Of a DNA stretch of 64,000 nt, positions 2,129 through 26,650 are shown one piece after another (position 1 is the first letter of the stretch; every line of letters starts with the position of its first letter). The position numbers and the translations under genes are program-made. The notes beneath the pieces are model-generated. The model ran no database searches and was not told the DNA's origin. It saw only the letters and a list, made by a program, of their open reading frames with translations. Source of the DNA: Patescibacteria group bacterium (GTDB lineage: Bacteria > Patescibacteriota > Patescibacteriia > 2-02-FULL-49-11); assembly GCA_041645165.1 (NCBI GenBank), contig JBAZQN010000007.1, positions 8,318 through 72,317 of the forward strand, written 5' to 3'.

Positions 2129-2986
2129 TTACTGCGAGGTTCGTGAGGTAATCACTATTATCTTCTTCTCCCCTTCTTCTATTTTCTCCTTCTCCCCGGG
2201 AAAATCGTGAATAGCGTTCCAGATAACCTCATAAGGATAGCGATATCCTTCGCCGCGGCGCGTACCGACGTCATTAGTGATGAATTCCTGTTTCTCATCG
2301 TCAAATCCGCGGACCACTATCATATGGTACCAAGGTCCGGGCTGGCGGAAATATGGATTTTTTAAAAGCCGGCCTGCCATTGGCGCGATGACTAAATTCC
2401 CTCCTTTCAAAATCTCTTTCACCTCTTCCACCCCCTTAACCTCTTTAACCTCAACTCCGATCCCATACACCTGACGCCCGATCTCCGCGGTGCGTTCGGC
2501 ATCACTGTCGCGGTAATCGCCATACTGTTCCTTTTGGTACGACACAAGCTTTAAAATTTCATCTCGCATTTCTTCTTGGGTAAGCGTTTCCATATGGTGC
2601 GCGAAACGGTTCGCAAGCGCCAAGGCCGCCTCTTCGCACGCTTCTCCCCACGGCTCCCGCCAATCGCCAAACGGCGCCTGAGGCTGAAAAGGAACCGGCA
2701 GTACGACGTTATCCGACCTATCCTCCCTCTCAGTCTTATCTATCATATCCGCCGTATCCGACTTATTCGTTCCATCAGCCTTATCCGAATTAATATTTGC
2801 CTTATACGACCTATCGGTCTTATCCGTCCTCTTAGTCTCACCTATGATATCTAACCTATCCACTGTATGTGACTTATCCGTCCTATCAATCCTATAAAAA
2901 GAATCCTCCGGAATAGGAAGGCTTAATCGATACGCAACCACTATCCCTAATAGAATGCTAAGAGCAATGACCGCGGTCCATTTCAT
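2129..2986 (-). CDS. membrane-anchored C39-like cysteine peptidase domain protein with a D/K/T-rich repetitive linker
   Basis: N-terminal TM/signal anchor. Catalytic-Cys context WGEACEEAALALANRF and later PWYHMIVVRGFDDEKQEFITND match the Peptidase_C39-like (C39_2) Cys/His pattern. The linker (aa ~35-95) is encoded by TATCC-type DNA repeats. Confidence 0.55.
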   Translation of the reverse strand: MKWTAVIALSILLGIVVAYRLSLPIPEDSFYRIDRTDKSHTVDRLDIIGETKRTDKTDRSYKANINSDKADGTNKSDTADMIDKTEREDRSDNVVLPVPFQPQAPFGDWREPWGEACEEAALALANRFAHHMETLTQEEMRDEILKLVSYQKEQYGDYRDSDAERTAEIGRQVYGIGVEVKEVKGVEEVKEILKGGNLVIAPMAGRLLKNPYFRQPGPWYHMIVVRGFDDEKQEFITNDVGTRRGEGYRYPYEVIWNAIHDFPGEKEKIEEGEKKIIVITSRTSQ

Positions 2987-3732
2987 ATTCGCAGCACTGA
3001 CGTATAGATATCATCCCGCGGATGAATCTTCAATTTACCTCTTTCGCCTCTGGTAATAAACGTAACCGGCGCATCCTCGATGACTGCGATTGGCGTGCGC
3101 TCGTCTCCCTCGCCCATCGCAAGGACTGCCGCGCTCGCGAGGCAATCCGCGGCTGACACTTTGGTCATCCGCAAGCGCCTCCCCATTAAATCTTTTTTTC
3201 CCACGTAATTCTTTTGTCCTTCAAATCCAAAATACCCTAATGCAATGCCTATGACACCGTGCCGCAAAGGCATAGTCCATGAATCAGTAATAAGCACGCC
3301 GAGCCGTTTCACTTTGTAACGCTGTTTAAACGCATCGTGCAAACGCTTTGCGCTTTCAAAGGCATTCTTAGGCCAAAGAATAAATCCGCCAAACGCATTG
3401 GACTCGTCGATGCCTGCATTGGGAATGAGCATCCCATTCTTTAATGCAAGCCAGCAATGCTCGCTCGGCCACACCTTGTCCGCTTCCTTCCGTACTAATA
3501 TCTCTAGCTGCTTTTCTCTTTCTCTATCTGCGTGAATCTGCGTTTTAGGCAAGCGTGACGATCTGCGTATATCCGCGTCTTTGGGTATGAATCTCCCTTC
3601 GCTTAAACTTACCACTTTTGAAGTAATCGCAATCACACTGCCTTCTTTCACACGGAGAAGCGCGCGATGAATTATCTTAGTGATATCATCACCCGTTTTC
3701 ACTAACGGTGTTTTTATGGGGGTTATATGCAT
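2983..3732 (-). CDS. CofE-like protein (F420-0:gamma-glutamyl ligase family)
   Basis: 249 aa with LIPNAGIDESNA and LITDSW motifs characteristic of the CofE/F420 ligase fold. Confidence 0.55.
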   Translation of the reverse strand: MHITPIKTPLVKTGDDITKIIHRALLRVKEGSVIAITSKVVSLSEGRFIPKDADIRRSSRLPKTQIHADREREKQLEILVRKEADKVWPSEHCWLALKNGMLIPNAGIDESNAFGGFILWPKNAFESAKRLHDAFKQRYKVKRLGVLITDSWTMPLRHGVIGIALGYFGFEGQKNYVGKKDLMGRRLRMTKVSAADCLASAAVLAMGEGDERTPIAVIEDAPVTFITRGERGKLKIHPRDDIYTSVLRI

Positions 3733-5270: not shown

Positions 5271-5690
5271 TTACTCACTGCCTCGCTCTTCCCCCAGCCT
5301 TTTCGCGAGCATCCTCTGCTCTTCGAGCGTGTCAATAATGTCGCCTTCGAATCGCCAATGGGTGATCGAGTTTTTGCCGAAAGGGTTTGCATGGATATGC
5401 TCGGTCACCGCGGGGATATTGAGTTCCGCACCGCGCAGCAGCTCATGCACGACCGGCTCGCCATCGTTCCCAAACACGGTCACCATGGATTCCCCCTCGA
5501 TCTGCTTAAGCCGCTCCTCGACCGGGCGATGGTGCCTCTGCATTTCCTTTCCCGGCGGCAGTTCTAAATATCCCTCGCTCTTCGCATGGGTAGCGCTCGC
5601 GATATAGACGGTATAACCGCCGAGGTCTAACCGCTCGGCATCTTGCAATTGGGGAATGGGGGTGGACATAATATTTAAAATAATTTTCAA
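5271..5690 (-). CDS. cupin-domain protein
   Basis: PGKEMQRHHRPVEE ... VTVFGNDGEP matches the two-motif cupin signature. The start may be the internal MSTPIPQ. Confidence 0.4.
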   Translation of the reverse strand: MKIILNIMSTPIPQLQDAERLDLGGYTVYIASATHAKSEGYLELPPGKEMQRHHRPVEERLKQIEGESMVTVFGNDGEPVVHELLRGAELNIPAVTEHIHANPFGKNSITHWRFEGDIIDTLEEQRMLAKRLGEERGSE

Positions 5691-5826
5691 TTCTCAATTT
5701 TCAATTTCTCCCTCTTCGCGGGATCCCGCGTAGCGGGACAATCAATGTCGCAATGAATCAATTTTCAAACATTGCATCATTGATTCATTGAAAATTAATT
5801 GAAAATTGGTATTTGAAAATTGGAAA

Positions 5827-6783
5827 TTACTCACTGGGTTCTCCTACAATCTCCTTCCTCACCTCCTCCAAATACCCCACCACCATTTGTCGGCATAATT
5901 CCTGTTCCTCAACGCTTTCAATCGCCGCGCACTCCTCTACATTGCCCGTCACCAAGGCGCGGCAAAGCGCTTGCTGGCGTATGCTTTCAAATGCATTGCA
6001 TGACTCTGGCTGGCGCGCGTACGCGATGCAGAGGAATTTCAGCTGCGAGCTCTCAGGACTTACAGAATCACAAAAATCTGGGGGCAGCGTGTCACCCGCA
6101 CTCGCCGCGGCTATTGCCACTTGCGTAAAGCATGAATCGCGCTTGACCCCTTCTTCCTGCGTCTCGCAATAGGCAAGCGATTGGGTAAGCGCTGCGGAGA
6201 TATTCTCCTCCCCTCCCGCACCCGCAGGCGCGGACGAGTAAGTCACGTCAAGCGCCCCCCACGCCGCGATCCGCACGGCAACCAATACGCACACCGCAAC
6301 GATGAGCAATCTGCCGCTGCCTTTGTGAAAATCCTCATCTTCCTCTTGCGAAAAAAACCACTTGATTTGGAATAGCCCTATAAGCAGCACCACCAACGCC
6401 GTGATGCAGAGCAAAATGCCTGCGACAAACCCTGCGACCCACCACCTCCCCAGTTGTGAAGGCCATGAGGCCGCCGCAAAGCTCGTTCCCACTACGCTGG
6501 CCATCATGGCAACAACGACCTGCAGCACCATCAGCCCCCACCCCCACTTCTTGCGCTTCCACAGGCCCACTGCAGTAACAAGCACGAATACGCCTGCCAG
6601 AAATAATAACACCTTCAACTGCGGCGCAAGCGCCACGCTCGTGCGAACTCGCGCAAGGCTTATCACTGCCGCAGGCGCGAACGCAACCGCCAGCAGCGCT
6701 AATCCCGTCGCCGCGCGCTCGAGTGCCACTACCTTCACGCCCCATGCAATATTTAATTGTTTATGCATATCAGCGTAACACAT
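5827..6783 (-). CDS. polytopic membrane protein with a C-terminal 8-Cys domain, function unknown
   Basis: Several predicted TM helices followed by a Cys-rich tail (CETQ...CFTQ...CDSV...CIAY...CNAF...CRAL...CAAI...CRQM). The region is GC-rich, which produces long overlapping ORFs on both strands. Confidence 0.5.
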   Translation of the reverse strand: MCYADMHKQLNIAWGVKVVALERAATGLALLAVAFAPAAVISLARVRTSVALAPQLKVLLFLAGVFVLVTAVGLWKRKKWGWGLMVLQVVVAMMASVVGTSFAAASWPSQLGRWWVAGFVAGILLCITALVVLLIGLFQIKWFFSQEEDEDFHKGSGRLLIVAVCVLVAVRIAAWGALDVTYSSAPAGAGGEENISAALTQSLAYCETQEEGVKRDSCFTQVAIAAASAGDTLPPDFCDSVSPESSQLKFLCIAYARQPESCNAFESIRQQALCRALVTGNVEECAAIESVEEQELCRQMVVGYLEEVRKEIVGEPSE

Positions 6784-8817: not shown

Positions 8818-9477
8818 CTACTCCCTCACTCTCGGCACGAGCACGTTCCTCCGCCAGAGCTTGATGCCGCCCCAGCCGAACGCAAACCCGCCGATGTGGG
8901 CAAAAAATGCCACGCCGCCGCCCACGATGCCGAGGCTGCCGATGCCGGAGATAAATTGGAAAAAAATCCAGTACAGGAGCATCATGCGCGCGGGCACGGT
9001 TTCCCGCGACAGCATGAATCCCCATGTCCAGAGCACGTCAATCCGCTCATGGGGAAATAACACAAGATAGCCTCCCATCACGCCCGCGATCGCGCCCGAG
9101 GCGCCGAGCATTGGAATCGTGGAAGCAGGGCCCATGACGATTTGGAGCGCGCTCCCCGCAACACCTGCGGCCAAATAAAATATCAGGTACTTTACATGCC
9201 CCAACCGGTCTTCGAGGTTGTCCCCGAAAATGTTTAAAAACAGCATATTGCCGATGATGTGAGCAAATCCTCCGTGGAGAAACAGGGATGTGAAAAGGCT
9301 CACTAAATTCACGCCGCGGATAATGTCATAAGGCGTCACCGCATACCTTCCCACAAACGCCTCAAGCCCGCTGCCCAATGAGAGCATATACGCAAACACG
9401 GCCACATTCGCGCCGATGATGCCGTAAGTCACGTAAGGGAATTTGCCCGAAGGGGTATGATCGCGGATAGGAATCAT
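8818..9477 (-). CDS. rhomboid-family intramembrane serine protease
   Basis: Six TM segments, GASGAIAGVMG (GxSG catalytic Ser) and a C-terminal AHIGGFAFG catalytic His context. Confidence 0.8.
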   Translation of the reverse strand: MIPIRDHTPSGKFPYVTYGIIGANVAVFAYMLSLGSGLEAFVGRYAVTPYDIIRGVNLVSLFTSLFLHGGFAHIIGNMLFLNIFGDNLEDRLGHVKYLIFYLAAGVAGSALQIVMGPASTIPMLGASGAIAGVMGGYLVLFPHERIDVLWTWGFMLSRETVPARMMLLYWIFFQFISGIGSLGIVGGGVAFFAHIGGFAFGWGGIKLWRRNVLVPRVRE

Positions 9478-9925: not shown

Positions 9926-10110
9926 AATTATGACATGAAGATTCTAGATTATTACCAATCTGTCTTTGCTCTCCCCCTTAAGATAAGGGGGACTTAAAAG
10001 GGAGTTATGAAAACTTGCTAAAATTTCTATTACCTCTATCCTACCACATTCCCCGCCACTTAAGCAAAAACACCCTTTGAGGATTTTCGCGATCAATCAA
10101 CCGCATTGTC

Positions 10111-10130
10111 ATTCCCGCGAAGGCGGGAAT
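10111..10130. repeat. attcccgcgaaggcgggaat hairpin, a member of the TCCCGC-N3/4-GCGGGA hairpin family
   Basis: Perfect 8-bp stem with a 4-nt loop. Related hairpins occur at 5720-5762 and 22621-22665. Confidence 0.6.
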
Positions 10131-10290
10131 CCAGAAATCACCATACTCACGTAATCACTCAACCTACAAGCTTCCTCACCCTCACCTTTGTACTACCATC
10201 ACTAGGTCTCAAATCTTTCATCTACCTCTCTGTCCTATTCAAAATGACCAAATATCAATTATCAATAATAAAACTTATGCTGGATACAAG

Positions 10291-10324
10291 GACAATTAAT
10301 CTCACGATCGTGAAAATAATTGTT
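10291..10324. repeat. 34-bp palindrome family, copy A (GACAATTAATCTCACGATCGTGAAAATAATTGT)
   Basis: Perfect CACGATCGTG core flanked by inverted AT-rich arms. See copies at 13947, 14266, 14368, 14632 and 15342. Confidence 0.85.
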
Positions 10325-10770
10325 CTCTCTTCTCTAAAATAACTGCTTATTGAGTACTACTCTTGCGCAACCCTCTGCACTCAACTCCTTCAGTGAGGTT
10401 GCCTGCAAAAAAGTGTCTCGGAGGATTTGCGGGCACGGTCTCCGACCTCACGTCGGAGGAGCAAATCCGAGAGTCAAGTGGCCAACTCCTCGCAGGGGAA
10501 TTGGACCGCGTCTTTTTCTGCAGGCAATCCGAACGCTAGCCCCCATTGCTCCATTGCCAATTATGAATCGGGACGCACTCCAAAATCCTCCCCCTATGGC
10601 TTCGCCATATCTTGATGATAAAAAGAGGGAGGTTAGGTGAGGGTGTCTGTCGCAAATAAGTATATGCCACTTTTCCCATTGCCCACACCATAATTTTCTG
10701 TTAAGGTAACTTAATCCAAAAACTTAATAAACAGTGAACTTTTAAAATTTATCCAAAGAAAGGACGGTGT

Positions 10771-11046
10771 GTGATGACAAGGGTATATGTCGTTAAAAGC
10801 GACCACTCATTGGCTCAACTTGTCTTCCCTCCAAGACAAGGGAGAAATAATACCCTGCGGAAACGTGTCAGTGGTATAGTCAAGACCGCAGAGTTCCGCG
10901 GGATATTTTCAGGAGGGGAATATGGAGTTTTTCGTCAAAATGATGGGCAGTACATCGGACGGGCTCAACATGACTACGTAAAATTAATCGAATTCTGTAC
11001 CAAACACAATGGAGGTAAGGCACCGAAAAGTATTTATGTAGTGTAG
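10771..11046 (+). CDS. hypothetical small protein
   Basis: 91-aa ORF with an RBS-like aaagaaaggacgg upstream. It sits immediately upstream of purB. No family recognised. Confidence 0.3.
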   Translation: MMTRVYVVKSDHSLAQLVFPPRQGRNNTLRKRVSGIVKTAEFRGIFSGGEYGVFRQNDGQYIGRAQHDYVKLIEFCTKHNGGKAPKSIYVV

Positions 11047-11084
11047 TAAAACAAATAACCTTTTTAAAAGAAAGGAGGGATCAA

Positions 11085-12380
11085 ATGATCCCACGTTATA
11101 CGCGGCCAGAAATGGGGGCGATCTGGGACGACATATATAGATTCCGCACATGGCTCAAAGTGGAGCTTGCGGCCTGTGAAGCATGGGCCGAACTTGGCCA
11201 CATACCCGAAGATGACTTGGAGGAAATCAGGACCAAGGCTCGGTTTGATGTGGAGCGGATTGCGAAAATCGAGAATGAAGTCAAACACGACGTCATCGCT
11301 TTCTTGACTAATGTGGCGGAGTATGTCGGCCCTTCGTCCCGATTCATCCATCTTGGTATGACCTCTTCCGATCTGCTGGATACCGCTCTGGCTTTGCAGA
11401 TGAAAGAGGCTGGAGAAATAATTGAGCAAGACATTCTCACTCTACGGAAGGTGTTGCGTGCGCAAGCGATTGCGCATAAAAACACAATCTGCATCGGGCG
11501 CTCTCACGGCATTCATGCAGAACCTACTTCTTTCGGCCTCAAGTTCGTTCTATGGCATGATGAGATGGATCGTAACCTTGATAGGTTACAACGTGCCATC
11601 GAAACCATATCCGTTGGGATGATGTCGGGAGCGGTCGGCACGTATGCTTTTTTGGATCCCCGGGTGGAGGAAATAGTCTGCCAGAAGCTTGGACTGAAGC
11701 CTGCCCGTATTTCCACCCAAATTATTCAACGTGACGTGCACGCCGAGTTCATGACGACGTTAGCCTTACTCGGCTGCAGCGTAGAAAAGATCGCGGTTGA
11801 GATACGCCACCTGCAAAGAACAGAAGTTTTGGAAGCCGAAGAGCCTTTTGCGAAGGGTCAGAAAGGGTCTTCGGCCATGCCGCATAAGCGCAATCCCATT
11901 GGCTGCGAAAATATTTCCGGTTTAGCCAGATTGCTGAGAACCAATGCTTTGGCAGCCATGGAAAACGTCGCGCTCTGGCACGAACGGGACATCAGCCATT
12001 CTTCGGTGGAGCGAGTCATTCTGCCAGATAGTTGTATTCTGGCAGATTACATGCTGGCACGGATGACCAAGATTCTCGAGAATCTGGTCGTCTACCCGGA
12101 TAATATGCTGGCAAACTTAAGATTGACGCGAGGCTTGATTTTTTCACAACCTGTTCTCTTGGCTTTGACACAAGCAGGAATGAGTCGTGAGGAGGCGTAT
12201 CAAATCGTGCAGACACACACAATGGCCTGCTGGCAAGAACGGAGCGATTTCAAGGCGGTCATTTTGGCCGATCGACGCATTACAAAATTGCTAAAGCACG
12301 ATACAATTGAAGCCTGCTTTGATGAGACCATTGGTCTCAAGCATGTCGATTACATCTATAAAAAGGTCGGCCTTTTATAG
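11085..12380 (+). CDS. purB: adenylosuccinate lyase
   Basis: 431 aa. The N-terminus MIPRYTRPEMGAIW and a length near 430 aa are typical of PurB. Strong RBS aaaggaggga. Confidence 0.9.
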   Translation: MIPRYTRPEMGAIWDDIYRFRTWLKVELAACEAWAELGHIPEDDLEEIRTKARFDVERIAKIENEVKHDVIAFLTNVAEYVGPSSRFIHLGMTSSDLLDTALALQMKEAGEIIEQDILTLRKVLRAQAIAHKNTICIGRSHGIHAEPTSFGLKFVLWHDEMDRNLDRLQRAIETISVGMMSGAVGTYAFLDPRVEEIVCQKLGLKPARISTQIIQRDVHAEFMTTLALLGCSVEKIAVEIRHLQRTEVLEAEEPFAKGQKGSSAMPHKRNPIGCENISGLARLLRTNALAAMENVALWHERDISHSSVERVILPDSCILADYMLARMTKILENLVVYPDNMLANLRLTRGLIFSQPVLLALTQAGMSREEAYQIVQTHTMACWQERSDFKAVILADRRITKLLKHDTIEACFDETIGLKHVDYIYKKVGLL

Positions 12381-12471
12381 GCGCGACTGCATTTAGGGAG
12401 GTGATAAGAAAAATAAAAACTCAAAACCCGGGGGATTTTCAAGTCATGACAAGTAACTGGGAGATAGTAAA

Positions 12472-13785
12472 ATGAACCCATTCGAAAAAGATACAATGAT
12501 AATCGAGGGTAAGACTAAGAAGGTTTATTACGTCAAAGGCAACGAACACCTTGCCATTTTTGAAAATAAACCAGACGTCACAGCCTTCGATGATCCCAAA
12601 TTCACTAAACAATTCGAAGCAAAGGCCACATACGCCACGACCACAACCTGCCGCGTATTCGAGCTATTGAAAGATGCTGGCATCCCTGTAGCATACAAGC
12701 AACGACTATCTGCTTCTGAGTTTCTTGCCTTACGTTGTAATATGATCCCATTAGAAGTGGTTGGCCGTCGACTTGCAGTGGGTAGTTATCTTAAGAGACA
12801 TCCAGAGCTGGCACTTGATGGCGCCTTACCACCTCATCGTTTCCACCGTCTTGTTGCAGAATTCTTTTTAAAAACTACTGGCGGCAAGTTAATTGGACGA
12901 GATGGCGAAATTCTTATTGAAGGATTGGATCCGTCAAAAGGGGAAGAGGATCCGTTTATACCCAATCCGTTCGAACCGGTATGGCAACTCTTCCACTCCA
13001 AAAAGCCAACTTGGGACAATTCTGCCAACCTTGAGCGTACCCTAAGATGCGATTCCGTTGCAGGGACGAGCATGATGCAAGAGATGGAAAAAATTCTCCG
13101 CCGGGTTTTTTTCGTCCTTGAAGGAGCATGGAATACACTTGGTTATCGTTTAGTTGATCTGAAAATTGAATTCGGTATCACAACTGACGGAAATTGCCTC
13201 GTTGTTGCCGATGTAATTGACAACGATAGCTGGCGTCTTCGCGATGCAACCTGGCAAGAGTTAAGCAAACAGCTCTTTAGGGAAGGAGCAGCCTTGGACG
13301 AAGTTGAAGAAAAGTATGGCTTTGTAGCGAGCCTGGTTGAACGATTTCGAATTCCTAAACAAGTCATGGTTTTATGGCGTGCCTCAACGAAAGATGATTT
13401 CCCAATAACTGGAATCCTACCAGGAGTCGAAGTTCAACAGATAACTTTGTCTGGACACAAATACCCGCAAGTATGCTTAGACAAGTTAGAGGAAATAATG
13501 CGTAATTACCCAGACGGTGGAGCTATCGTAGTAAAAGTGGGAATGAGTAATGGACTGGGACCAATGTTGGCCGCACGTACAACCTGGCCAGTTATTACCA
13601 TTCCCGCATCCACAAAGGATGCCCCAAGCGATGTGTGGAGCTCTTTGCATCTGCCATCACTTGTTCCGATGGCAACCATCCTATCTGATAAAAATGCGTT
13701 TGATTTTGCTCTTAATGTACTGTCTGCTAAAAATCCTGCGGTGTATATGCATCGTCAATTCGCAAATGAACAACTCGATAAATAG
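12472..13785 (+). CDS. purC: SAICAR synthetase (PurC) fused to a PurE-like AIR carboxylase/mutase domain
   Basis: The N-terminal ~300 aa are PurC-like (KKVYYVKGNEHLAIFENKPDVTAFD..., a long SAICAR-synthetase fold). The C-terminal ~140 aa (VMVLWRASTKDDFPITG...GGAIVVKVGMSNGLGPMLAARTTWPVITIPAS) resemble the PurE Rossmann core (GS-D, AG-AAHLPG-A-T--PVIGVP). Confidence 0.55.
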   Translation: MNPFEKDTMIIEGKTKKVYYVKGNEHLAIFENKPDVTAFDDPKFTKQFEAKATYATTTTCRVFELLKDAGIPVAYKQRLSASEFLALRCNMIPLEVVGRRLAVGSYLKRHPELALDGALPPHRFHRLVAEFFLKTTGGKLIGRDGEILIEGLDPSKGEEDPFIPNPFEPVWQLFHSKKPTWDNSANLERTLRCDSVAGTSMMQEMEKILRRVFFVLEGAWNTLGYRLVDLKIEFGITTDGNCLVVADVIDNDSWRLRDATWQELSKQLFREGAALDEVEEKYGFVASLVERFRIPKQVMVLWRASTKDDFPITGILPGVEVQQITLSGHKYPQVCLDKLEEIMRNYPDGGAIVVKVGMSNGLGPMLAARTTWPVITIPASTKDAPSDVWSSLHLPSLVPMATILSDKNAFDFALNVLSAKNPAVYMHRQFANEQLDK

Positions 13786-13793
13786 AAGAAAAA

Positions 13794-13836
13794 AGGCGGA
13801 CACGGAGTGAGGAACCTTGTCCGCTTTGCCATTTTT
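13794..13836 (+). terminator. putative intrinsic terminator after purC-purE
   Basis: gcggacacgg...ccttgtccgc hairpin followed by TTTGCCATTTTT. Confidence 0.4.
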
Positions 13837-13946
13837 AAGCCCCCATTTCACCCTCTCCAATATCTTCTTTCTTCCCCTCTACCGCTTTCGTCCGCTTTCG
13901 TCCGTCTCAACCAGCACTAAAATCTAAACCAACACTAAAAACGAAA

Positions 13947-13980
13947 GACAATTAATCTCACGATCGTGAGGATAATGTCC
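13947..13980. repeat. 34-bp palindrome family, copy B
   Basis: gacaattaatctcacgatcgtgaggataatgtcc. Confidence 0.85.
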
Positions 13981-14045
13981 CTTCCTGTACATTACCTCTC
14001 TCGACAATATCACATTTCCATAAAATTTTCTGTCCATATTCATAT

Positions 14046-14215
14046 GAAGCTCCGCGGGCTTACACCCGCGGTGTCTTCCTCAACAGGAGATCCGGCGGAA
14101 TCCGCTTTAAGCTGCCTGCCGCCTTCGTCCCGACATGTTGGGACTTCGGCGGGTCCGCAATCCCGCATTCATCCGCGTATCTTACGCCCGCGGTTTTTTG
14201 CGGAGGCGGATAAAG
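14046..14215. repeat. ~170-nt hairpin-rich element, copy 1 of a two-copy family (candidate ncRNA or MITE)
   Basis: gaagctccgcgggcttacacccgcggtg ... cccgcattcatccgcgtatcttacgcccgcgg ttttttgcggaggcggataaa. It is homologous to 50570-50722, and the stems differ by paired, stem-preserving substitutions. Confidence 0.6.
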
Positions 14216-14265
14216 TGAAAACATCAATGATTATAAGTATTCAGAAATGAATTTCAATGAATGCC

Positions 14266-14304
14266 GACGACAATTAAAAATACGATCGTGACAATAATGT
14301 CCCC
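14266..14304. repeat. 34-bp palindrome family, copy C
   Basis: gacgacaattaaaaatacgatcgtgacaataatgtcccc. Confidence 0.8.
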
Positions 14305-14367
14305 TTGTCTTTCCCCACTTCCCGAATATGCCATCTTCCTACTTCTATTATTGCCTTTTTCAAGAGA

Positions 14368-14546
14368 GCAATTAATTCTACGATTCAGCCGACTGAAGCC
14401 ACAAGGCCACTATGGCGAAATTGGCTCACCCGCCTGCCAACGCCTGTCAGCAATGAACGGTGACATTCATCACGTTGTTATTATCCCTGACCAACATAAC
14501 GTTCCCCGGGAAAGGCAGATGGCGGGCAGGTGACAATAATGTCCCT
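14368..14546. repeat. 34-bp palindrome, copy D, split at its centre by two nested insertions
   Basis: Left half gcaattaattctacga and right half gtgacaataatgtccc are separated by a ~44-bp insert (ttcagccgac...ctatggcgaaattggctc, 14384-14427). A ~100-bp MITE-like element (cccgcctgcc...ggcgggcagg, 14429-14530) follows. Confidence 0.7.
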
Positions 14547-14631
14547 CCTATTTCCCCTTCATCGCCAGTTCTTTCCATTTCTCGTATCTCACCTCTTCCC
14601 TCCACGCCCAATATTCTATACTATAAAGAGC

Positions 14632-14666
14632 GCAATTATTTTCACGATCGTGAAAATAATGTCCCT
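14632..14666. repeat. 34-bp palindrome family, copy E
   Basis: gcaattattttcacgatcgtgaaaataatgtccc, immediately 3' of the PaaX-like gene. Confidence 0.85.
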
Positions 14667-14698
14667 TCACCTTTTTCTATTTTCCTTGCGTCGCATTA

Positions 14699-15250
14699 TT
14701 ACAGCCCAAACATCTTTTCCGCCTGCGCCATACCGTCAAAGTAGTCTGCCCGAATGTAACGGACATACTTCCCCACCTTGTAGTACGCCGTGGTCGCATT
14801 AATCTCGTCCTGACATTCATACGGATAAGCCCACACGCTTAAATTCACGTAACGGAATCCGAGATCACGGAGTTTTTTCCGGAATGCATCGCGCGCGCGG
14901 CGAAAATCTTCAGGAATATCAAACACGACTATACGCCATTTCCCGTCCCAGTGGGGAGGTTTCATTATGGTAATCGAATCGATCGCTCTTCCTTTCAATA
15001 CCTCCTTCCCCCTCTGGGTGAGCCGATACTCCCATGCGGTACGTTTACTGCTCACCCGCTCCACATACCCTTGTCGCTCGAATCTCCGCAGCGTGCGGCG
15101 CAGCGGTTTGCGCGGAATCGAATAGCGATTCGCACCCATGCCGAAGAGCTGCACTGCATTGGGCGCCATAACAGCCACGGTGAGCATTCCAATGCCCTCA
15201 AGAATTTTCCAAATGGTATCAGCGTACGCTTTTCCTTTCTTGGGTCTCAT
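14699..15250 (-). CDS. PaaX-like transcriptional regulator (wHTH N-terminal domain plus PaaX_C-like C-terminal domain)
   Basis: WDGKWRIVVFDIPE matches the PaaX hallmark WDGKWLLLL-E. The C-terminal RRARDAFRKKLRDLGFRYVNLSVWAY also has a Cas2-like character. Confidence 0.45.
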   Translation of the reverse strand: MRPKKGKAYADTIWKILEGIGMLTVAVMAPNAVQLFGMGANRYSIPRKPLRRTLRRFERQGYVERVSSKRTAWEYRLTQRGKEVLKGRAIDSITIMKPPHWDGKWRIVVFDIPEDFRRARDAFRKKLRDLGFRYVNLSVWAYPYECQDEINATTAYYKVGKYVRYIRADYFDGMAQAEKMFGL

Positions 15251-15341
15251 AAAAGTTGTAAATAAGTTACATTTTCATTCCCTAAAAAGAAGCGGCAAGA
15301 ATAAGAGCGATATGGTAATATTACTACGATATTATTTAAAA

Positions 15342-15415
15342 GACAATTAATGTCACGAGCCAACTTCGCCATAGTAGCCGATGGCTACGTCGGCTGAATC
15401 GTGAAAATAATTGTC
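15342..15415. repeat. 34-bp palindrome, copy F, with a ~41-bp central insertion
   Basis: agacaattaatgtcacga | gccaacttcgccatagtagccgatggctacgtcggctgaat | cgtgaaaataattgtc. The insert is the reverse complement of the one in copy D (14384-14427). It lies in the divergent PaaX-like / ECF sigma promoter region. Confidence 0.75.
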
Positions 15416-15512
15416 TTCTTGCCAGTCTCTCTTTTATGGTATTTATGGTATAGTGAAATCCCAGATTGTAATGATTCTAGCCTTTTTTCGACTACTGATA
15501 ACGTAAAAAAAC

Positions 15513-16058
15513 ATGCCTCCCGAACCAATACCAACTCGCGACAAGGAACTTGAGGAGCGTTTTTTGGCTGCGTATGACGCCCAGGTGAAATCCATTTTCC
15601 GCTACATCTACTACCGCACTGGCCAGGAAAAAGAGGAAACGCAAGAGCTCACGCAGGAAGTATTCATGCGCACATGGGCGTACCTGCAAGAAAATAAGCG
15701 CCCCATCGACGACATCCGCGCTTTCCTCTTTCAAGTGGCCCGCCATGTCATCGCGGACCGGTGGCGCAAACACAAACCTGCGCTTTCCCTCGAAGAGTTA
15801 TCTCCTCAAGAAGAGCCTGCCACCCCGCCGCTCCCGCACGCATCCCTCGACCTTCTCATCCTTGAACAGCACCTTTTGAAGCTCCCCGTACGCCACAGGG
15901 AAATATTAACGCTGCGCTTTATCAGCGACCTCTCGACTGAAGAAACAGGGCGCGTTCTCGGCATTAGCGCGAATAATGTGGCAGTACTCACCAATAGGGC
16001 GATTAAAAAATTAAGAAAATTACTTCCCACTACCATGCATGATGTATTGGATGCATAA
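15513..16058 (+). CDS. RNA polymerase sigma-70 factor, ECF subfamily
   Basis: 181 aa. Region 2 (QELTQEVFMRTWAY) and a region-4 HTH (LTLRFISDLSTEETGRVLGISANNVAVLTNRAIKKLR). Confidence 0.8.
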   Translation: MPPEPIPTRDKELEERFLAAYDAQVKSIFRYIYYRTGQEKEETQELTQEVFMRTWAYLQENKRPIDDIRAFLFQVARHVIADRWRKHKPALSLEELSPQEEPATPPLPHASLDLLILEQHLLKLPVRHREILTLRFISDLSTEETGRVLGISANNVAVLTNRAIKKLRKLLPTTMHDVLDA

Positions 16059-16107
16059 TTTACCGCATTAAATTATAACAAATTTTCAATTTTCAAATAC
16101 CAATTTT

Positions 16108-16207
16108 CCCGCCTGCCAACGCCTGTCAAGGGGGACGGTAACATTCTTAAGGTAAAAATTCTCCCTCATATACGGCACGTTCCCGGGGGAAGGCTGTGGC
16201 GGGCAGG
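16108..16207. repeat. ~100-bp MITE-like element, copy 2 (cccgcctgccaacgcctgtca...ggc-gtggcgggcagg)
   Basis: It shares both ends and ~70% of its interior with 14429-14530. A truncated third copy is at 37928-37975. Confidence 0.65.
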
Positions 16208-16302
16208 CAATTAATTTTCAATATCACAATGTTTGAACATTAGGTCATTGGGATTTATTTGAAAATTGAGAATTGAAAATTGAGAATTGAAAATTACACA
16301 TT

Positions 16303-22564: not shown

Positions 22565-22796
22565 TTCAAATCCATAATTTTCAAGGTTCAATTTTGCAAT
22601 TTTTCCCCCGACTTGTCGGGGGATCCCGCTGCGGCGGGACAATCAATGTTACAATGATCCAATTTTCCAATGTTTGAAAATTGTCGCATTGAAAATTATT
22701 TGAAAATTGAGCACTGGGAATTGAAAATTATCAAGGTTGGGATTTATTTGGACACTGGACATTGGAATTTGGAAATTGAAATACACTCATTACTTT

Positions 22797-26602: not shown

Positions 26603-26636
26603 TCCGCATATAGTACGATCGTATTATAGACGGACG
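26603..26636. repeat. near-perfect 34-bp palindrome gtccgcatatagtacgatcgtattatagacggac, sharing the ACGATCGT core
   Basis: Its reverse complement differs at a few positions. It has the same architecture as the CACGATCGTG family (GC-rich outer arms, AT-rich inner arms). Confidence 0.6.
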
Positions 26637-26650
26637 TTTCCTAAACAGCA

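Follow-up and report, generated by a model that had tools for sequence, protein, structure and literature searches.

Clade-specific palindromes flank the genes of PaaX-like proteins in Patescibacteria and are candidate operators and landing sites of two miniature elements

Long palindromic repeats of bacteria are known from several systems. Repetitive extragenic palindromes (REPs) and bacterial interspersed mosaic elements (BIMEs) flank a cognate gene, that of the REP-associated tyrosine transposase (RAYT), and IS1397/ISKpn1- or IS110-type elements insert into REP hairpins. HIP1 (GCGATCGC) is a hyper-abundant dispersed octamer of cyanobacteria. Operators, miniature inverted-repeat transposable elements (MITEs) and insertions into palindromes are all known kinds of element or event. 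Here we describe a family of ~33-bp palindromes around the gene of a 183-aa PaaX-like protein in a 64,000-nt stretch of DNA (hereafter, the window) from a Patescibacteria group bacterium (GCA_041645165.1, contig JBAZQN010000007.1, positions 8,318 to 72,317). The arrangement of site, gene and site across a whole protein family, with palindrome centres specific for each clade, appears to be undescribed in the literature that we searched, and so does a 40-nt element that is inserted into these palindromes. In that literature, we found no paper that connects Patescibacteria, Cas2-like modules or flanking palindromes with PaaX-like or PF20803 proteins.

Direct reading of positions 10100-15700 together with a repeat finder gave six copies (A to F) of the palindrome with the centre ACGATCGT within 5.1 kb (10291-15415). 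All six copies claimed by the original prediction were present on rereading, and all were located; copy C starts at 14269, the earlier value of 14266 being 3 nt early. The consensus of the dyad over the six copies is GACAATTAAT-nTCACGATCGTGA-nAATAAT(T)GTC. The 12-mer TCACGATCGTGA occurs four times in the window with at most one mismatch, as compared with 0.16 expected, and four occurrences were reached in none of 100 shuffled sequences. Half-site scans and BLAST searches of the window with each element revealed no further family member in the other 59 kb. No strand is assigned to the palindromes. Copy E (14632-14663) is intact and lies ~35 nt past the stop codon of the PaaX-like gene (14699-15250, minus strand). 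Copy F (15342-15358 + 15399-15415; span 15342-15415) lies between this gene and the divergent gene of an extracytoplasmic function (ECF) sigma factor, and is split between CACGA and TCGTG by the 40-nt element, which we call ins1. Copy A (10291-10324) is intact and is located upstream of an operon of orf91, purB and a purC/E fusion gene, and copy B (13947-13979), also intact, is ~160 nt downstream of the stop codon of purC/E. Copy C (14269-14301) is intact with a diverged left arm, AAAAATACGATCG. Copy D (14367-14543) is doubly interrupted: between its left half (14367-14382) and its right remainder (14530-14543) there are a second ins1 (14383-14425, plus strand), the dinucleotide TC (14426-14427) and a MITE (14428-14529). 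When the inserts are removed from D and F, TACGATCGTGACAATAATGTC is restored.

The PaaX-like gene is flanked in the same way in related genomes. We compared L003 (GCA_040757655.1), L004/L005 (GCA_040960315.1 and GCA_040960375.1) and L008 (Uhrbacteria). The PaaX-like proteins of L003, L004 and L008 are 81-82% identical to that of the window, and the adjacent gene is ~75-78% identical in DNA. In all three, an intact palindrome lies between the sigma factor and PaaX-like genes and a second follows directly after the stop codon of the PaaX-like gene; thus the position of copy E is kept. L006 encodes a protein of 52% identity among unrelated neighbours, with cysS upstream, and here too a palindrome stands on either side of the gene (TTGCTAATGTAACTTACGATCGTGAGTTACATTAGCTA and GATCACATAACTCACGATCGTGAGTTATGTGATC). 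A scan of a genome collection gave more than 590 matches to the protein, the best of which were all from Patescibacteria with several paralogues per genome, and 80 further loci were taken from them. Flanks were scored as associated when a match of at least 14 nt was common to the 450 bp or less upstream and the 300 bp or less downstream of the gene. By this measure the two flanks matched in 64 of 83 family loci, the matches being mostly 20-46 nt long. The same measure gave 3 of 196 displaced windows and 11 of 288 other open reading frames (ORFs) of 130-300 aa at the same loci (1.5-3.8%).

The sites of the family are 30-50-bp near-perfect palindromes with a mean G+C content of 0.32, and many upstream copies end 3-50 nt ahead of the ATG. 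Their centres fall into the classes CGATCG, GCATATGC, GCTATAGC/GTACTATAGTAC, GCGGTCGC, GCTATCGC, CCATGG and CTGCAG, and the class follows the protein cluster: the centre is CGATCG in cluster 23, GCATATGC at 17 or more of the 24 loci of clusters 3 and 4, and GTACTATAGTAC in cluster 21. In 421 kb only two distant extra sites were found, copy A of the window being one; otherwise the sites are confined to the gene flanks. Because family sites are confined to the flanks of their own gene, the extra copies in the window are unusual. The protein family is large: 3,692 clusters at 50% identity were found at E ≤ 1e-10 among 1.84 billion representatives, and nearly all of the best 150 listed clusters are of ~180-240 aa and match most of the profile.

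These results bear on the idea that the palindromes are generic REP-like or MITE repeats, unrelated to genes and clustered by chance or by local duplication. Copies B to E are indeed loosely arrayed, with a C/T-rich tail of similar sequence behind every palindrome and 62-72% identity between the 53-nt units, and C and D look like duplicates. However, the gene association far exceeds that of the controls, positions are the same in genomes that share ~75% DNA identity in the adjacent gene, and the centre tracks the protein clade. This idea is thus largely refuted, and we give it hardly any weight. The six copies are spaced 3656, 322, 102, 264 and 710 nt apart, with mutually related sequences between them. 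Copies C and D look like decaying duplicates additional to the bracketing pairs; no counterpart of C was seen in L004 or L008.

Copy F overlaps a putative promoter of the PaaX-like gene (15318-15346, minus strand), with a -35 box TTGTCT (15346-15341), a 17-nt spacer and a -10 box TAATAT (15323-15318). The TTGTCT is formed by the last bases of the arm of copy F, and this geometry is conserved in L008 and L003 (TGGTAATAT). A promoter scan gave a second candidate, specific to the window, at 15356-15329 (GTGACA-16-TAATAT). On the other side, a candidate extended -10 of the sigma factor gene, TGGTATAGT (15446-15454, plus strand), lies ~30 nt beyond the palindrome; as read from the sequences, it is conserved in L003, L004 and L008. 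In the GCATATGC subfamily, the upstream site has the sequence CCG-CATATG-CTA(G/T)AAT (CATATGCTA(G/T)AAT) and so contains TGCTA(G/T)AAT, which resembles an extended -10 box (TGnTATAAT) and ends 9-17 nt before the ATG. Therefore, the leaders in this subfamily would be short or absent. Start codons were assigned mechanically, so that all distances to the ATG are approximate. The downstream site of the subfamily is mostly a mirror image, and the -10-like arm points into the gene from both ends. Judged from sequence, the dyad thus lies at, or overlaps, the promoter of the presumed regulator itself, as is typical of an operator.

The PaaX-like protein (NCBI record WC659_03460) consists of a winged helix-turn-helix (wHTH) and a PaaX_M, Cas2-like domain (PF20803, 84.3 bits against a cut-off of 24), and is the proposed cognate binding protein of the palindromes. 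The nearest named relative is Candidatus Uhrbacteria RIFCSPLOWO2_02_FULL_49_11, and the window corresponds to the metagenome contig k141_80972 of ENA ERZ27249422. It scores 40 bits with TIGR02277 (PaaX equivalog; cut-off 264.55), 20.6 bits with TIGR01573 (Cas2; cut-off 24.5) and ~20 bits with the Cas2 models of PADLOC. The top structural match of its AlphaFold model (pLDDT 81.7) is E. coli PaaX (8a39, E 2.8e-4), followed by Rv0674, wHTH proteins and Cas2. The protein stops after the Cas2-like domain, lacks the C-terminal domain of PaaX and is not in a paa gene context. The motif FDIPE, in the first strand of the Cas2-like domain, is invariant across the family and is absent from E. coli PaaX. 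We also noticed a conserved hydrophobic stretch, GMLTVAxMAPNAVQL, at residues ~17-40 of these proteins, which is modelled with low confidence and might be a membrane-associated or dimerisation segment.

With moderate confidence, we favour the reading that this protein is an autoregulated regulator, bracketed by its own sites, that cognate dyads also bracket the pur operon, and that two miniature elements land at the dyad centres. The palindromes would be operators of the adjacent 183-aa protein, a dimer of which would bind the dyad, with the centre (T/C)ACGATCGT(G/A) acting as the clade-specific determinant. We infer that such binding would be repressive: at F it would occlude the -35 box of the regulator's own gene, and F is also located just upstream of the divergent sigma factor promoter. 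Because sites E and F bracket the gene, autoregulation is suggested, possibly via looping or via control of an inward-facing antisense promoter. The second bracket of this Uhrbacteria-like clade, from A to B, encloses purB-purC/E, and C and D would be extra, decaying copies. The original prediction had proposed, as the first of two alternatives, an operator array for PaaX-like or ECF regulators into which small mobile elements insert, and the comparative results support this alternative. The flanking pairs in L003, L004, L008 and L006, together with the family-wide association, favour the link to the PaaX-like protein and not to the ECF sigma factor.

Four observations weigh against a simple operator. 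First, the orientation of the downstream site relative to the upstream site is mixed (27 direct, 19 inverted and 17 symmetric). Second, sites of 30-50 bp exceed the length of ordinary wHTH operators. Third, FDIPE resembles the catalytic strand of Cas2, and an enzymatic role of the protein is possible from this likeness. Fourth, the arms evolve in a compensatory manner. When upstream and downstream copies of nine loci were compared, 22 arm positions differed, and 14 of these were double changes that keep complementarity, as compared with 7 single changes and 1 unpaired double change. Since the half-sites of a homodimer should drift independently, this result suggests intrastrand pairing (in a cruciform, single-stranded DNA or an RNA hairpin) or correction by template switching. 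Correction of quasipalindromes by template switching is a known mutational process. As for orientation, a uniform arrangement like that of terminal inverted repeats was rejected as a general rule, although the GCATATGC subfamily shows it.

RNA stems typically show compensatory changes, and the palindromes might be RNA hairpins in 5′ and 3′ untranslated regions, that is, terminators or insulators, RNase III or stability elements, or sites of translational autoregulation through the RRM-like Cas2 domain. The predicted hairpins are stable (mean -20 kcal/mol; z of -3.6 and -5.1 for two intact window copies), some members have A and T tracts alongside, as in a bidirectional terminator, and the many upstream copies that stand shortly before the ATG also suit this explanation. 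However, a T-rich 3′ flank is present in only 5 of 27 downstream copies. G.U pairs on the sense strand are not in excess over A.C mismatches (22 versus 16, with 67 of other types). Moreover, the -10 box of the GCATATGC subfamily is inside the site, which places the upstream copy outside the gene's own transcript. No Rfam family corresponds to the palindromes: there was no gathering-level match in the window and no relevant match at E ≤ 10 in 13900-15500. We therefore hold an RNA function to be improbable. Intrinsic terminators in particular were rejected in view of the low G+C content and of T tracts in only ~20% of downstream copies.

Comparison of the orthologous loci gave both empty and filled sites, which the original prediction had proposed to look for. 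Exact empty counterparts of F are present in L008, L003 and L004, and alignment of the four sequences leaves a clean 40-nt gap. The empty site of L008, GACAATTAATGTCACGATCGTGAAAATAATTGTC, equals copy F exactly, minus the insert. The position of the junction between ins1 and F is uncertain by one base, and no bases of the target are duplicated. Conversely, the L004 orthologue of A carries an ins1 that is 95% identical to that in F, and A is empty in the window. Thus ins1 has moved since these genomes diverged, because F is empty in the relatives and A is filled in L004 and empty here. The 95% identity of these two copies compares with ~75% for the genomes in the adjacent gene.

The A to B bracket is conserved in L004, and a counterpart of B is also present in L008. 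L003 lacks the entire orf91-purB-purC/E cassette together with palindromes A to D and has orthologues of E and F only (L003 10553-11133 versus window 9926-14698). It retains a homologue of window 10540-10730, which in the window separates A from the operon. Therefore, the breakpoints in L003 do not coincide with A and E. Recombination between palindromes was rejected as the source of the cassette difference, as only one breakpoint of L003 is at a palindrome. In the L003 palindrome beside the cassette junction, the left arm is new and is a mirror image of the right arm. A motif, GGTAACTTAATCCAAAAAC, is found upstream of orf91/purB at 10705-10723 and is conserved in L004 and L003; in L003, which has no pur genes, it directly adjoins the palindrome downstream of the PaaX-like gene.

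Both ins1 copies of the window split their palindrome exactly at the centre and in opposite orientations, as had been predicted, with lengths of 40 nt in F and 43 nt in D. The copy in F (15359-15398, minus strand, 66.3 bits) lies between CACGA and TCGTG and reads TTCAGCCGAC-GTAGCCATCGGCTAC-TATGGCGAAGTTGGC on the minus strand. The copy in D (48.7 bits) is at the same point and has a degenerate inner hairpin. In general, ins1 is 38-43 nt long and consists of TTCAGCCGAC, a hairpin GTAGCC-loop-GGCTAC, and T(A/C/T)TGGCGAA(G/A)TTGGC. A metagenome scan gave homologues on other contigs: L090 (at least two copies), L099, L100/L107, L108 and L092. The hairpin shows two compensatory pairs (GTAGCT/AGCTAC and GCAGCC/GGCTGC). 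In the outer stem GCCGAC/GTTGGC, the G.T pair is kept in eight of eight sequences, the ends being fixed by the search pattern. Because G.T would become A.C on the opposite strand, ins1 folds in one strand. Inside its host palindrome, ins1 lengthens the stem (-37.2 kcal/mol, z = -8.0).

Of nine ins1 copies, five are in hairpins, namely three CGATCG palindromes and two other ins1 copies in which they are nested (L100 and L090 12870), and four have no obvious symmetry. The palindrome is thus not the only target to which ins1 homes: on other metagenome contigs, it also occurs at non-palindromic sites and within itself. No match to ins1 was found in Rfam and none in viral contigs, and no transposase linked to it was identified. 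The combination of a strand-specific hairpin with the lack of a target duplication, as seen in ins1, is expected of an element derived from IS200/IS605; that ins1 moves by transposition is our inference. However, a link to IS200/IS605 was rejected: the end hairpins of the one IS200-like element recovered, in L109 and L003 (CTACCGGC-TCT-GCCGGTAG), are unlike ins1. L003 and L109 are the only loci with a tnpA, and the window has none. L003 has a C-terminal remnant of an IS200-like Y1 transposase at 1461-1664, followed by hairpins. L109 has a fuller homologue at 2657-3345, which is interrupted at 2808-3055 by a ~245-bp MITE with ~25-bp terminal inverted repeats (GTTCTTCCGACTTTCCTGTGGGTAA...).

The second element in D, foreseen as a MITE of ~100 bp, is 102 nt long (14428-14529, plus strand), has the terminal inverted repeats CCCGCCTGCC...GGCAGATGGCGGG and is inserted at CGATC^GTG. 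Four copies were found in three genomes, with conserved ends and variable interiors. The second copy of the window (16108-16207, plus strand) has the same ends and a different interior, and lies outside the palindromes in a region of AATTTTCAA-type repeats. A copy in L003 is inserted at ACGATC^GTG of another dyad with a CGATCG core, that is, at the same position as in D. Thus two of the four copies are at CGATCG cores; the window copy at 16108 and the L010 copy are in A+T-rich repeats. There is no target-site duplication, the flanks rejoining to TCGTGACAAT and ACGATCGTGG, and no Rfam match. Long A+T-rich perfect dyads could extrude as hairpins or cruciforms, and under the operator reading their centre would be an insertion hot spot for these two unrelated non-autonomous elements, ins1 entering at CGA^TCG and the MITE at CGATC^GTG.

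The heptamer-like repeats around the second MITE, AATTTTCAA / GAAAATTGA(G)AATTG, form arrays at 16081-16108, 16256-16302, 5682-5828 and 22697-22781, and make long, imperfect inverted repeats that enclose intergenic regions. The second MITE lies within one such pair, between the genes of the ECF sigma factor and a DUF5667 protein, and similar motifs occur in L003, L010, L023, L029, L060 and L064. These repeats could be the site family of another regulator.

A different explanation of palindromes, gene and insertions is that a Cas2-like nuclease or recombination factor recognises or cleaves the palindromes as single-stranded DNA or cruciforms. The unit of palindrome, gene and palindrome would then be a REP/RAYT-like or cassette-like selfish module, the solo copies A to D would be its footprints or docking sites, and nicking at the centre would explain the integrations. 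The compensatory evolution of the arms and the invariant FDIPE in the Cas2-like strand suit this explanation, as do the flanks: each is a palindrome, and they repeat each other in direct as well as in inverted orientation. It is also consistent with two unrelated elements being inserted 2 nt or less from the dyad centre, with the presence or absence of the pur cassette beside a palindrome, and with several paralogous units per genome, each having its own palindrome. On the other hand, near-identical units in different contexts were not found; divergence looks vertical, and only L067 and L081 reach 95%. Recent transposition of the whole unit was rejected for the same reason. Moreover, there are normally two copies per unit, unlike REPs, the L003 deletion has a single breakpoint at a palindrome, the Cas2 score is below threshold, and the promoter overlap suits a regulator. 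We consider this explanation unlikely, though worth keeping in view. The stronger form, in which the family would be structure-specific DNA enzymes that nick the tips of extruded palindromes beside their own gene, seems to us distinctly unlikely. If it were true, the family would represent a new self-contained module on the Cas2 fold, analogous to REP/RAYT or to integron cassettes. Such a module could bracket and mobilise neighbouring operons such as purB-purC/E, and its nicked centres could capture hairpin elements such as ins1.

The other features of the locus are as follows. The ECF sigma factor gene is at 15513-16058, and the gene of the DUF5667 protein is a further neighbour. The orf91-purB-purC/E operon occupies 10771-13785 (plus strand), and its last ORF (12472-13785) encodes a SAICAR synthetase (purC) fused to an AIR carboxylase (purE) domain. 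Elsewhere, the window contains genes for two Trp_repressor-domain proteins, a his biosynthesis cluster and a heavy-metal P-type ATPase gene. No transposase or integrase and no Cas family is among the 25 listed of 69 Pfam families in the other 55 ORFs of the window. The palindrome at 26603-26640 (38 bp, AAACGTCCGCATATAGTACGATCGTATTATAGACGGACGTTT), between convergent radical-SAM-like and NUDIX-like genes, had been proposed as a relative. It does share the 8-bp centre ACGATCGT, but nothing else: its arms differ and are G+C-rich and terminator-like. We therefore rejected it as a family member; because of these arms and its setting between convergent genes, it is a distant relative at best.

Three other hairpin sequences were noticed. 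A G+C-rich multi-hairpin element of 176 nt (14040-14215; -78 kcal/mol, z ~ -4.5) lies between copies B and C; neither the window nor the ~87 loci compared contain another copy, and it has no Rfam match. A 146-nt element at 10395-10540 forms a single long hairpin (-63.7 kcal/mol, z ~ -4). In L004 (9112-9177), the left half of this element is kept and directly adjoins the ins1-filled orthologue of palindrome A. Therefore, the position of the palindrome relative to this element varies between genomes. Finally, a short G+C-rich hairpin, TTCCCGCGAAGGCGGGAA, is found at 10112-10131 after a 143-aa gene. It has a relative at 9001-9021, ~1.1 kb away and inside a rhomboid gene (8818-9477), and a similar stretch occurs in L061.

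Patescibacteria (the candidate phyla radiation) have tiny genomes, and their gene regulation is almost uncharted. For each examined member of a large unstudied protein family, we now have a candidate recognition site. These would be natural, possibly orthogonal pairs of protein and DNA, which are testable in vitro without cultivation. With its empty and filled sites, its nesting in itself and its occurrence on several unrelated metagenome contigs, ins1 is among the smallest mobile-looking elements. The locus is also a clear example of palindrome centres as integration hot spots.

The closest described protein is the PaaX repressor of the phenylacetate regulon of E. coli and Pseudomonas (8a39). 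PaaX is the best structural match, has an N-terminal winged helix and a PF20803 Cas2-like middle domain, and acts on a dyad site that overlaps promoters of the regulator's own neighbourhood. In contrast, the window protein has 183 aa instead of 316 and no C-terminal domain, keeps FDIPE and has no paa genes nearby, and its sites are on both sides of the gene, are near-perfect palindromes of 30-50 bp and have clade-specific centres. The REP/RAYT system is similar in that palindromes flank a cognate gene, their centre or loop is targeted by other elements and insertions are nested. It differs in that the flanked gene here does not encode a Y1 (HUH) transposase (no PF01797 match), that a unit usually has just two copies in the 421 kb examined, whereas REPs number hundreds per genome, and that the inserts, of 40 and 102 nt, are non-autonomous. 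Like palindrome-associated transposable elements (PATEs), which are derived from IS200/IS605, and like MITEs, ins1 enters hairpins without duplicating its target, and its own fold is specific to one strand, with a conserved G.T pair; the relative L003 has a remnant of an IS200-like tnpA. The 102-nt element resembles MITEs in its terminal inverted repeats and variable interiors. Unlike PATEs, ins1 has only 38-43 nt and one hairpin, and the IS200-like ends of L109 are dissimilar. A Cas2-fold protein beside several ~33-bp palindromic repeats recalls CRISPR (clustered regularly interspaced short palindromic repeats) with Cas2, but there is no regular array of repeats and spacers, Cas2 models stay below threshold and the inter-repeat sequences are mutually related. 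HIP1 has the same or nearly the same palindromic core, and several family members are centred exactly on GCGATCGC; however, HIP1 belongs to another lineage, and here the core is part of a long dyad that flanks a gene.

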